64,000 nucleotides of DNA from Candidatus Melainabacteria bacterium (GTDB taxonomy: Bacteria > Cyanobacteriota > Vampirovibrionia > Vampirovibrionales > Vampirovibrionaceae), in assembly GCA_902168245.1 (NCBI GenBank), contig CABHPA010000026.1:20849-84848 (forward strand). The letters are read 5' to 3'. A model generated the notes under the pieces. That model did no database searches and was not told the DNA's origin. It worked only from the letters and a program-made list of their open reading frames with translations. This document shows positions 60,320 to 61,060 of this stretch, piece by piece (position 1 is the stretch's first letter; each line of letters begins with the position of its first letter). A program made the translations under genes and the position numbers.

Positions 60320-60960
60320 ATAAAACGCCGAATCCCCGTGTAACACGGCGAGACAGCGTTGAAGCGCAATATAAGAAGTCTATTAAATGTTTTCCAGCCT
60401 TGTCCTTGTATATATTTAAAAACAAATTATTTAAAGTCCGGAACAGTTTCTAACAATTTATTAAATCGATTTTTCCAGCAATCAAAAAAGCATTGCATCA
60501 AAAGGCTTTTACCACGCTTGTCGGGCCTTCCAGCCAATTTAATTCCCAATAAAAAAGCCATCTCTTGAAGAAATTGGAGGTCACTCCAAAGAGATGGCGT
60601 TAAGCGCAATATAGAAGTCTATAAATAAGAAAAAGATGCCTGTTTCCAGCTTATGTCCTTGTATATGCATAAAAACAGGCTTGCAAATTTCCGGAACATT
60701 TTTTGAACTTTTATAAACTTTGTTTTTCTCATTTTCACACTCAGTCCAAAACCGCTTCAAACCGTCTGTCCATTCCATTCAATGAAAATTTCCCAAAAGA
60801 AAAACGCCAGTTCTTTTGAAGAAATTGGAGGCTCATTCAAAAGAGTGGCGCAAGACGCAAATTAAGAGGTTCTGAAGAGAGTGTAAGAGGGATAAGGTAA
60901 ACTTGATTAACCCTGCCTATATATACAAAAACAATAAAAATGAATCCATGAACATATCTT
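60320..60960. repeat. About 2.5 degenerate tandem copies of a ~245-nt noncoding unit, each with two hairpins (conserved loops, co-varying stems)
   Basis: The units are roughly 60356-60600, 60598-60852, and a partial copy to about 60960. Blocks conserved between units are GCGCAATATA(A)GAAGTCTAT, TTCCAGC(C)TT(A)TGTCCTTGTATAT, TCCGGAACA and TTGAAGAAATTGGAGG. The first hairpin occurs at 60388-60424 and 60638-60680 (stems TGTTTT/AAAACA versus GCCTGTTT/AAACAGGC). The second hairpin occurs at 60557-60598 and 60805-60850 (stems GCCATCTCTT/AAGAGATGGC versus CGCCAGTTCTTTTG/CAAAAGAGTGGCG). A third related hairpin, CCGTGTAACACGG, lies at 60331-60343. The region is AT-rich, at roughly 35-40% GC. Confidence 0.6.
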
Positions 60961-61060
60961 TAAGATATTTTTACAATCACCATTCCTAACCCGCCAAATC
61001 CCCTCTCATTCCATCGGCAAGCCGTACGTTCCCACCCTCAACAAAGTTTCCCCATACCGC

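Follow-up and report, generated by a model that had tools for sequence, protein, structure and literature searches.

What is encoded in the GC-poor intergenic DNA that lies next to a tyrosine recombinase gene in a Candidatus Melainabacteria bacterium of the Vampirovibrionaceae? The DNA analysed here, referred to as the window, is a stretch of 64,000 nt (contig CABHPA010000026.1 of assembly GCA_902168245.1, positions 20,849 to 84,848), in which a tract of about 850 nt (61060–60212) separates the recombinase gene, xerD, from an open reading frame (ORF) rich in proline and tyrosine. A first-pass annotation leaned towards a site-specific recombination substrate and named a family of small structured RNAs among the other candidates. 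The present analysis indicates that the tract probably consists of three paralogous, independently transcribed small RNA (sRNA) genes of a new family, all located on the minus strand.

The earlier description of the tract as low in GC and noncoding is borne out: its GC content is 35–42%, compared with about 55% for the window, and it contains no conserved ORF. A mechanical ORF of 60 amino acids (60427–60609) is disrupted in the comparison with the sister strain L114 by a 1-nt indel, and ARAGORN detects no transfer RNA or transfer-messenger RNA. The motifs quoted in the first-pass annotation are located where it placed them and, within the window, are confined to this gap. The tandem repeat is likewise real, with motif spacings of 251, 253 and 256 nt and a mean column identity of 67% in the three-way alignment, but it comprises three degenerate units of about 250 nt rather than the reported 2.5 or so; these are named C, B and A in minus-strand order. 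Tandem Repeats Finder reports nothing in the tract because the repeat is too degenerate. Taking into account the length of the units, their limited identity and the lack of a match between the window and any direct-repeat family of clustered regularly interspaced short palindromic repeats (CRISPR), the earlier statement that the tract is not a CRISPR array holds.

Predicted promoter blocks of the three units

The informative strand of the units is the minus strand, as for xerD and dnaX; the first-pass annotation had used the plus strand, on which the features do not make sense. On the minus strand only, each window unit displays a promoter core and, 84–115 nt further on, a hairpin (−17 to −21 kcal/mol) with its U-run. 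The putative promoter is a conserved block of about 65 bp, GTTCC-N14/15-TTGTTTTTA-TATAAT-like, or in its general form GTTC(C/A)-N14/15-(T/C)TGTTTTT-(A/G) followed by an AT-rich −10-like box, which is TATAAT in most relatives.

In unit C the block (60920–60979) comprises the palindrome ATATCTTAAAGATAT, a GTTCA box, the core TTGTTTTTG and a TATATA −10-like box; it is matched by the R1 model at 60899–60979 (E = 8.5e-12) and by a hidden Markov model (HMM) without the window rows at E = 8.7e-6. The block of unit B (60664–60725) contains GTTCA-N5-TGTTCC boxes, the core CTGTTTTTA and a TGCATA/CATATA −10-like box, with an R1 match at 60642–60725 (E = 2e-16) and an independent HMM match at E = 5.5e-11. 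In unit A (60411–60473), TTAATAAAT is followed by TGTTAGAAAC-TGTTCC boxes, the core TTGTTTTTA and an AT-rich −10-like box; the R1 match covers 60388–60473 (E = 2.7e-16) and the independent HMM gives E = 6.2e-12. The HMM built from other genomes only yields exactly three matches in the window, all on the minus strand of the gap, the next best having E = 2.1. An internal promoter considered within unit A, TGGAAA-17-TATATT, was rejected, its hexamers and spacing being unconserved in unit B and in other species.

The 90-nt promoter regions of 22 units from the window and other loci align essentially without gaps (one single-base gap). All of them contain TTTTT without change, at least 90% have GTTCC and the flanking TTG and AT, and a TATAAT-like box marks the end of the block. 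Further upstream, GTT(A/C)n and GTTCC boxes are placed about 10–11 bp apart, at about −51 and −40, and are preceded by a TTAATA-like stretch at about −60. This last stretch is replaced in one subtype of units, type 1 below, by the palindrome ATATCTTAAAGATAT.

Predicted transcripts and terminators

The predicted sRNA of unit C (60795–60914, about 115 nt) has a G-poor, CU-rich body (CCUUAUCCCUCUUACACUCUCUUC; 11% G and 8 CUC/UCC/CCU motifs), a UUGCG motif at 60860–60856 and a terminator hairpin at 60851–60804, which carries CCUCCAAUUUCUUC in its loop and is followed by a U-rich tail (−18.1 kcal/mol, then TTTTCTTTT). That of unit B (60551–60658, about 108 nt) begins with a 5′ part of type 2 (AAGGACAUAAGCUGG) and continues with UUGCG at 60609–60605, a hairpin with a CCUCC loop at 60598–60557 and a U-run at 60556–60551; the hairpin has −19.4 kcal/mol and is followed by TTTTTT, and the 146-nt fold has a z-score of −4.3. 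For unit A (60314–60405, about 85–90 nt, type 2) the RNA is predicted to start with AAGGACAAGGCUGG and to include UUGCG at 60369–60365, a hairpin at 60359–60325 that contains CCGTGTAACACGG (−17.8 kcal/mol) and the tail UUUAUUUUUUU.

On the minus strand a U-run follows every hairpin of the window (UUUUCUUUU, UUUUUU and UUUAUUUUUUU, respectively), whereas on the plus strand none is followed by one. The hairpins are therefore read as intrinsic terminators, pointing in the same direction as xerD and dnaX. Two elements of the first-pass annotation thus find their place: its second hairpin, seen in two units, and the CCGTGTAACACGG hairpin of the third unit are real and stable (about −18 to −19 kcal/mol), and its conserved "junction" GCGYWRARGCGCAAWWTA reads UAUAUUGCGCUUAACGC on the complementary strand, where it is the UUGCG(C)UU motif which precedes the terminator in most units (not in L110, L104 and unit 1 of L010). 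The body upstream of UUGCG measures about 36–60 nt and is predicted to be mostly unpaired, while CCUCCAAUUUCUUC or CCUCC is exposed in the terminator loop of units B and C and of unit 1 of L016.

In all complete units, in the window and at other loci, a hairpin of −11 to −24 kcal/mol with at least 4 U after it is located 84–148 nt past the −10 box. The terminator stems vary among species yet fold in every case. When 16 3′ ends are aligned, the closing helix proves to be paired in 78% of cases, compared with 32–51% after the partners are slid. At one inner pair, AU, GC and UA each occur in four sequences. In unit 1 of L016, a stem of the unit-B type is lengthened by matched UUU/AA insertions on both arms, and the sole substitution between unit A and its L114 counterpart falls in the terminator stem and improves the pairing from −16.6 to −17.4 kcal/mol.

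The other hairpin of the first-pass annotation does not survive this comparison. Its claimed stem covariation disappears on inspection, since both copies share TGTTT/AAACA and one is merely longer, and across 22 members it is paired in 54% of cases, compared with 52% in shuffles and 52–65% for slid partners. It is formed by the promoter T-run together with A-rich sequence in the body, and is unconserved. Of the candidates named earlier, the "family of small structured RNAs" is supported, but with different details: the conserved hairpins are terminators, the best-conserved part is the promoter rather than a loop, and the bodies are predicted to be mostly unstructured. What appears to be a covarying hairpin near a recombinase can thus be merely a row of terminators.

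Two subtypes of unit

The units fall into two subtypes. Type 1, proximal to xerD and represented by unit C, has bodies with 0–11% G that are CU-rich, contain 7–20 CUC/UCC/CCU motifs and are predicted to be unpaired; its predicted RNAs measure 92–145 nt. Type 2, distal to xerD and represented by units A and B, is A-rich, starts with AAGGACAAGGCUGG or AAGGCUGG and contains one to three copies of (A/G)GCUGG or AGGCUGG(GUU), with three copies about 22 nt apart in L011, L012 and L014. Unit B combines a promoter and body of type 2 with a terminator and downstream flank of type 1, which match those of the first unit of L016. The third copy thus probably arose by tandem duplication of a segment of about 250 nt (terminator 1, spacer, promoter 2, body 2), and such a duplication would account for the periodicity of about 250 nt.

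Pairing between the two subtypes, in which one would act as a sponge for the other, was considered and rejected: according to RNAduplex, mononucleotide shuffles pair at least as well as the native combinations of type 1 and type 2 (z from +0.7 to +1.8), although these shuffles keep the CU-versus-AG composition, so that compositional complementarity lies outside this test.

The repeated motifs of type 2 raise the possibility that the same sRNA genes mainly titrate an RNA-binding protein, CsrA/RsmA-like or other, which would bind either to the CU-rich tracts of type 1 or, in type 2, to the (A/G)GCUGG and AAGGA motifs. The one to three copies of AGGCUGG(GUU) and their spacing of about 22 nt in three species are consistent with this idea, and a multicopy tandem arrangement is typical of the RsmX/Y/Z sponges. 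Furthermore, the 5′ end AUACAAGGACAU appears to resemble RUACARGGAUGU, the CsrA consensus from systematic evolution of ligands by exponential enrichment. However, the invariant part of the repeated motif is GGCUGG and the GGA is unconserved, the motifs lie outside the predicted hairpin loops, no Rfam CsrB/Rsm family is matched, and no CsrA gene came to light, although no search aimed at one was made. Protein binding was also raised as a possibility by the authors of the work on the LhrC sRNAs of Listeria (PMC4132741), but as the main function of the present RNAs titration is considered unlikely.

Conservation and distribution of the units

The order of genes on the minus strand is pilT (63039–61957), xerD (61945–61061), the gap, the Pro/Tyr-rich ORF (60211–59735) and dnaX (59508–57463). 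The XerD protein of the window is 75–79% identical to that of seven Vampirovibrio or Vampirovibrionales assemblies. In the xerD–dnaX gap, six other Vampirovibrio genomes (L010, L011, L012, L014, L015 and L016) carry two modules each, the window and L114 carry three, and L013 and the more distant L017 carry none. The copy-number variation between orthologous loci on which the first-pass annotation had set store is thus present, with 0, 2 or 3 units.

In the comparison with L114, the promoters are 95–98% identical (unit C 98%, unit B 95%, unit A 97%) and the predicted transcripts 92–100% (unit C 92%, unit B 100% across 117 columns, unit A 99%), whereas spacers and flanks reach 64–75% and contain indels. 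The flank upstream of the unit C promoter is 64% identical, the unconserved spacer between C and B (60726–60794, minus strand) 75%, with indels, and that between B and A (60474–60550, minus strand) 73%, with the 1-nt indel mentioned above. The feature is real and under purifying selection.

The same architecture, with predicted RNAs of 84–145 nt, is seen in the complete units examined at other loci, namely in the six Vampirovibrio genomes, in L114 and on dispersed metagenomic contigs. A scan of metagenomes with the promoter pattern returned 120 matches, mostly due to chance, and ten true family members. Dispersed copies are found at no fewer than eight unrelated loci at which no recombinase is adjacent; their neighbours encode a HAD hydrolase, Yip1, ABC-F, peptidase M3, hemerythrin, an AI-2E transporter, MlaD, a cupredoxin and asparaginase II. 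As judged from the sequences, the family is common to Vampirovibrio species and some unassigned metagenomic contigs.

Two AT-rich contigs among these (31–36% GC; L104 854–1030 and L110 9429–9620) share the promoter block; after it come an RNA that is CUCUC-rich and almost free of G, and a CCCCC...GGGGG terminator. Conservation of the block extends well outside the Vampirovibrio genomes with 55% GC. In rhizosphere metagenomes (Ga0157374, Ga0105239) a near-identical member of about 90 nt (ACAGGCUGGGUUAUAAAAAUC...UUAUUGCGCU..., followed by a terminator) is found in at least four different flanks (L078 2984–3073, L079 64–153, L124 64–153, L097 1–120 and L052 1–125), and several of these contigs terminate inside the unit. 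This suggests that the rhizosphere organism has a multicopy, possibly homogenised sRNA gene.

Relation to the recombinase and to mobile repeats

The reading towards which the first-pass annotation leaned takes the hairpins for cruciforms, recombination sites or cassette boundaries on which the adjacent tyrosine recombinase would act. It has in its favour the position of the tract next to such a gene, the differing copy number between genomes and a perfect 7-1-7 palindrome at 60957–60971. However, the enzyme is of the housekeeping XerC/D type: its gene (61061–61945, minus strand), a neighbour that lies outside the element, matches NCBIfam NF001399 with 289.6 bits (cut-off 279), and its scores against the integron-integrase models are far below their cut-offs (157 vs 265 bits for TIGR02249 and 94 vs 435 for NF011946). 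These scores, together with the lack of any tie between the repeats and an integrase locus, agree with the earlier view that the tract is no canonical integron. The palindrome belongs to the conserved promoter block of type 1 units and is the only close inverted repeat; its centre is 1 nt. A Xer dif-type site has two imperfect inverted arms of about 11 bp and a centre of 6–8 bp (no dif model was run). In addition, the U-run on one strand only is the signature of a terminator, unlike a symmetric site. L013 keeps the pilT–xerD–dnaX synteny without any unit and the dispersed copies stand apart from recombinases; consequently, the adjacency to xerD is incidental synteny. The units are observed to be independent of the recombinase, and the recombination reading is regarded as extremely improbable.

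It might also be supposed that a dispersed non-autonomous repeat, similar to miniature inverted-repeat transposable elements (MITE) or repetitive extragenic palindromic (REP) sequences, has by chance accumulated copies in this tract. The near-identical rhizosphere copies in at least four flanks would fit such a repeat, as would contig ends inside the unit, which are typical of assembly breaks at repeats. Nevertheless, neither terminal inverted repeats nor target-site duplications are seen at the borders of the units, the edges of conservation fall at promoter and terminator, and the 64-kb window contains three copies only, all in one gap. Furthermore, the promoter is fixed while the bodies diverge between species, the opposite of what is expected of a selfish repeat. 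A MITE- or REP-like origin is therefore judged highly improbable.

Relation to the flanking genes

Another explanation is that the units are cis elements of the flanking genes, namely stacked promoter–leader–terminator attenuators or insulators that control the Pro/Tyr-rich ORF and dnaX or terminate xerD. The location of xerD, the ORF, dnaX and all units on one strand, the end of unit A about 100 nt ahead of the ORF and the presence of a same-strand gene after the terminator in L104 and L110 are all compatible with it. On the other hand, what comes after units C and B is a further promoter and not a gene, dnaX has a conserved promoter of its own downstream of the ORF, as discussed below, and the units are conserved between species while the downstream ORF is not. 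The dispersed copies lie beside unrelated genes, some of which are on the opposite strand, and no riboswitch or leader family is matched. A cis function is thus very unlikely, and the interpretation as three independent sRNA genes is retained.

Comparison with known sRNA families

Rfam was searched in permissive mode with the window, the seven orthologous loci (L010–L016) and two narrow slices. In Rfam 15 no family reaches its threshold, and only sub-threshold matches at chance level (VrrA, PyrR, RsaE and Yfr1) are returned, so that the database check named in the first-pass annotation assigns the units to no described family. 

By analogy, the closest functional precedent is LhrC1-5 of Listeria monocytogenes, multicopy sRNAs of about 100 nt. 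Several copies are neighbours within a single intergenic region, and every copy has a promoter and an intrinsic terminator of its own (PMC4132741). The LhrC copies share a promoter element upstream of −53 that depends on the regulator LisR, and they block Shine–Dalgarno (SD) sequences through CU-rich motifs that are redundant and include one in the terminator loop (PMC4132741). The units described here resemble LhrC in being multicopy, with side-by-side copies, a predicted promoter and terminator per copy and a shared conserved promoter block, and in exposing CU-rich motifs redundantly, including in the terminator loop (units B and C and unit 1 of L016). In contrast to LhrC, they belong to a different phylum, no covariance model matches at E ≤ 10, the motif is CUC/CCUCC rather than the UCCC triplet, and the A-rich (A/G)GCUGG subtype has no LhrC counterpart; function and regulator are here proposed by analogy only.

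Tandem sRNA paralogues are also known from the NsiR1 arrays of Nostoc, PrrF1/2, OmrA/B, AbcR1/2 and the RsmX copies; these are adjacent genes with their own promoter and terminator, and their promoters are conserved while the bodies diverge. C-rich seeds are known from RsaE/RoxS. No homology to these sRNAs was detected.

The oxygenic cyanobacteria have the Vampirovibrionia as their sister lineage. Yfr1 (RF01116) measures 54–69 nt and carries the exact sequence ACUCCUCACAC in an unpaired region of 12–20 nt between two hairpins (PMC2190773). Type 1 units resemble Yfr1 and Yfr10 in having a 5′ hairpin (in some species), an unpaired CU-rich stretch and a terminator, and GUGAGUC..GACUCAC-ACUCcCUCACAC in unit 1 of L014 aligns to the full Yfr1 model. 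However, ACUCCUCACAC never occurs exactly (1 edit in unit 1 of L014, 2–3 in the other type 1 units and 3 in unit C of the window), the predicted RNAs are longer (92–145 nt) and the unpaired region extends over 40–60 nt rather than 16–20 nt. The Yfr1 score in unit 1 of L014 is 16.1 bits, compared with a gathering threshold of 38, and the window has no match at E ≤ 10; the RsaE model aligns to the same CU-rich stretch and terminator of L014 with 18.6 bits against a threshold of 79.

The Yfr2 family is present in 1–9 copies at non-conserved loci, with a conserved 5′ motif and crosstalk with a CU-rich partner sRNA; a dedicated regulator binds to a conserved promoter element that lies about 55 nt upstream of the start (PMC6191309, PMC6778093). 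The multicopy occurrence, the non-conserved loci, the conserved 5′ motif and a conserved putative promoter element are features that the present family shares. Unlike Yfr2, however, the units give no Rfam match at E ≤ 10 in the window or in L010–L016, and the duplexes between the two subtypes are no stronger than the composition-matched shuffles. The element of the Yfr2 promoters, CGRE1, is a GTTA/GTTG-N13/14 inverted repeat at −55 (PMC6191309); it is absent from the promoter alignment, which shows GTTnnAAAC-TGTTCC boxes instead, with no TAAC/CAAC partner. It is conceivable, though considered rather improbable, that the two subtypes correspond in the Vampirovibrionia to the cyanobacterial network of Yfr1/Yfr10 (CU-rich) and Yfr2 (multicopy, with a purine-rich 5′ motif). 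If it were true, the Yfr1/Yfr2 network would be older than the split of the photosynthetic cyanobacteria from their non-photosynthetic predatory sister lineage, and it would have a dedicated, deeply conserved promoter and regulator.

Proposed mode of action

The best reading of the units, by analogy, is that of multicopy regulatory sRNAs which would work like LhrC, RsaE or Yfr1. Their transcription, exact 5′ ends, regulator and targets are predictions drawn from the sequence. Each gene would consist of the promoter block, a largely unstructured body, the UUGCG(C)UU motif and an intrinsic terminator. One dedicated transcription factor would control all copies, and the multiplicity of genes would provide dosage or differential control. 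In the mode of action considered likeliest, the exposed CU-rich stretches, which are anti-SD-like, would pair in trans with the ribosome-binding regions of messenger RNAs. That the RNAs act mainly by such base-pairing is possible and is put forward tentatively. Candidate seeds for pairing are, besides the CU-rich stretches and UUGCGCUU, the loops with CCUCC and the AAGGACAAGGCUGG motif at the 5′ end. An SD-like motif at −20 to −4 is present in about 40% of the window genes, compared with 12% in a control window, and therefore targets for an anti-SD sequence exist.

Several observations weigh against this interpretation. No recognisable −35 hexamer is found in the promoter block, and the −10-like box, from which the start sites are inferred, is a poor match in units A and B (AATATA and TGCATA). 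The lack of a −35 hexamer, together with the phased GTT boxes, suggests an activator-dependent promoter, whose activator would be either a winged-helix response regulator or a GntR-type protein. As the terminators are of different lengths and cannot be aligned by MAFFT/RNAalifold, their formal support from covariation is modest; applied to the 3′ ends, these programs return only a 3-bp GCG/CGC helix. The type 2 RNAs are not CU-rich, so that the anti-SD mechanism may cover only type 1 and the CCUCC loops, and the complement of the type 2 5′ motif is not enriched as a target in the window (9 matches, about 7 expected). Finally, a tblastx comparison of the dispersed metagenomic loci with those of Vampirovibrio, made to assign their taxonomy, yields essentially nothing.

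A literature search found no paper on Vampirovibrio sRNAs and no regulatory RNA for Vampirovibrio or other Melainabacteria, and Rfam 15 contains no matching family. The present units are candidate riboregulators of an obligate predator of algae that is of importance for the crashes of algal ponds. The unusually well-conserved promoter block could serve as bait for the cognate transcription factor and lead to its regulon. The family may also allow a test of whether sRNA circuitry of the Yfr1/Yfr2 type predates photosynthesis in the cyanobacterial lineage.

Neighbouring genes and further observations

In L016 the match to xerD is shorter (an ORF of 254 amino acids, the match ending at 5762), and between xerD and the first unit lies a GC-rich segment of about 260 nt (5766–6030) with a long inverted repeat (cattgcgaggcg...cgctcgcaatg) that is present at no other locus. 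Upstream of the pilT-like gene of L016 (3723–3801), a sub-threshold match to the S10-Clostridia leader (28 vs 35.1 bits, E = 0.13) is probably due to chance. The contig L018 (DATNQC010000339.1, 3515–3931) is labelled as a metagenome-assembled genome of an Oculatellaceae cyanobacterium; its XerD N-terminus is 81% identical to that of the window, and it may be a mis-binned Vampirovibrio contig. It stops within xerD.

The Pro/Tyr-rich ORF of 158 amino acids (59735–60211, minus strand) is a lineage-specific neighbour outside the element. It has no Pfam or NCBIfam match, and tblastn among L010–L018 gives one match only, C-terminal and with 33% identity, in L016. The slot between the array and the dnaX promoter is occupied in different species by differing, poorly conserved Pro/Tyr/Gln-rich ORFs (L011 6539–7033, L012 6468–7034, L014 6515–6982 and L016 6449–6991), and L010 and L015 have no ORF there.

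A strongly conserved element, CTTTATTC-N8/9-AAA-TTCAGTACACT, is located 70–170 nt upstream of dnaX in every Vampirovibrio locus, L013 included, and reads like a dnaX promoter (TTTATT-17-TACACT). dnaX would therefore have its own promoter, downstream of the sRNA array. In the window the element lies at about 59715–59679 on the minus strand, and in the other loci it is found at 6522 (L010), 7086 (L011), 7088 (L012), 6555 (L013), 7035 (L014), 6343 (L015) and 7118 (L016).

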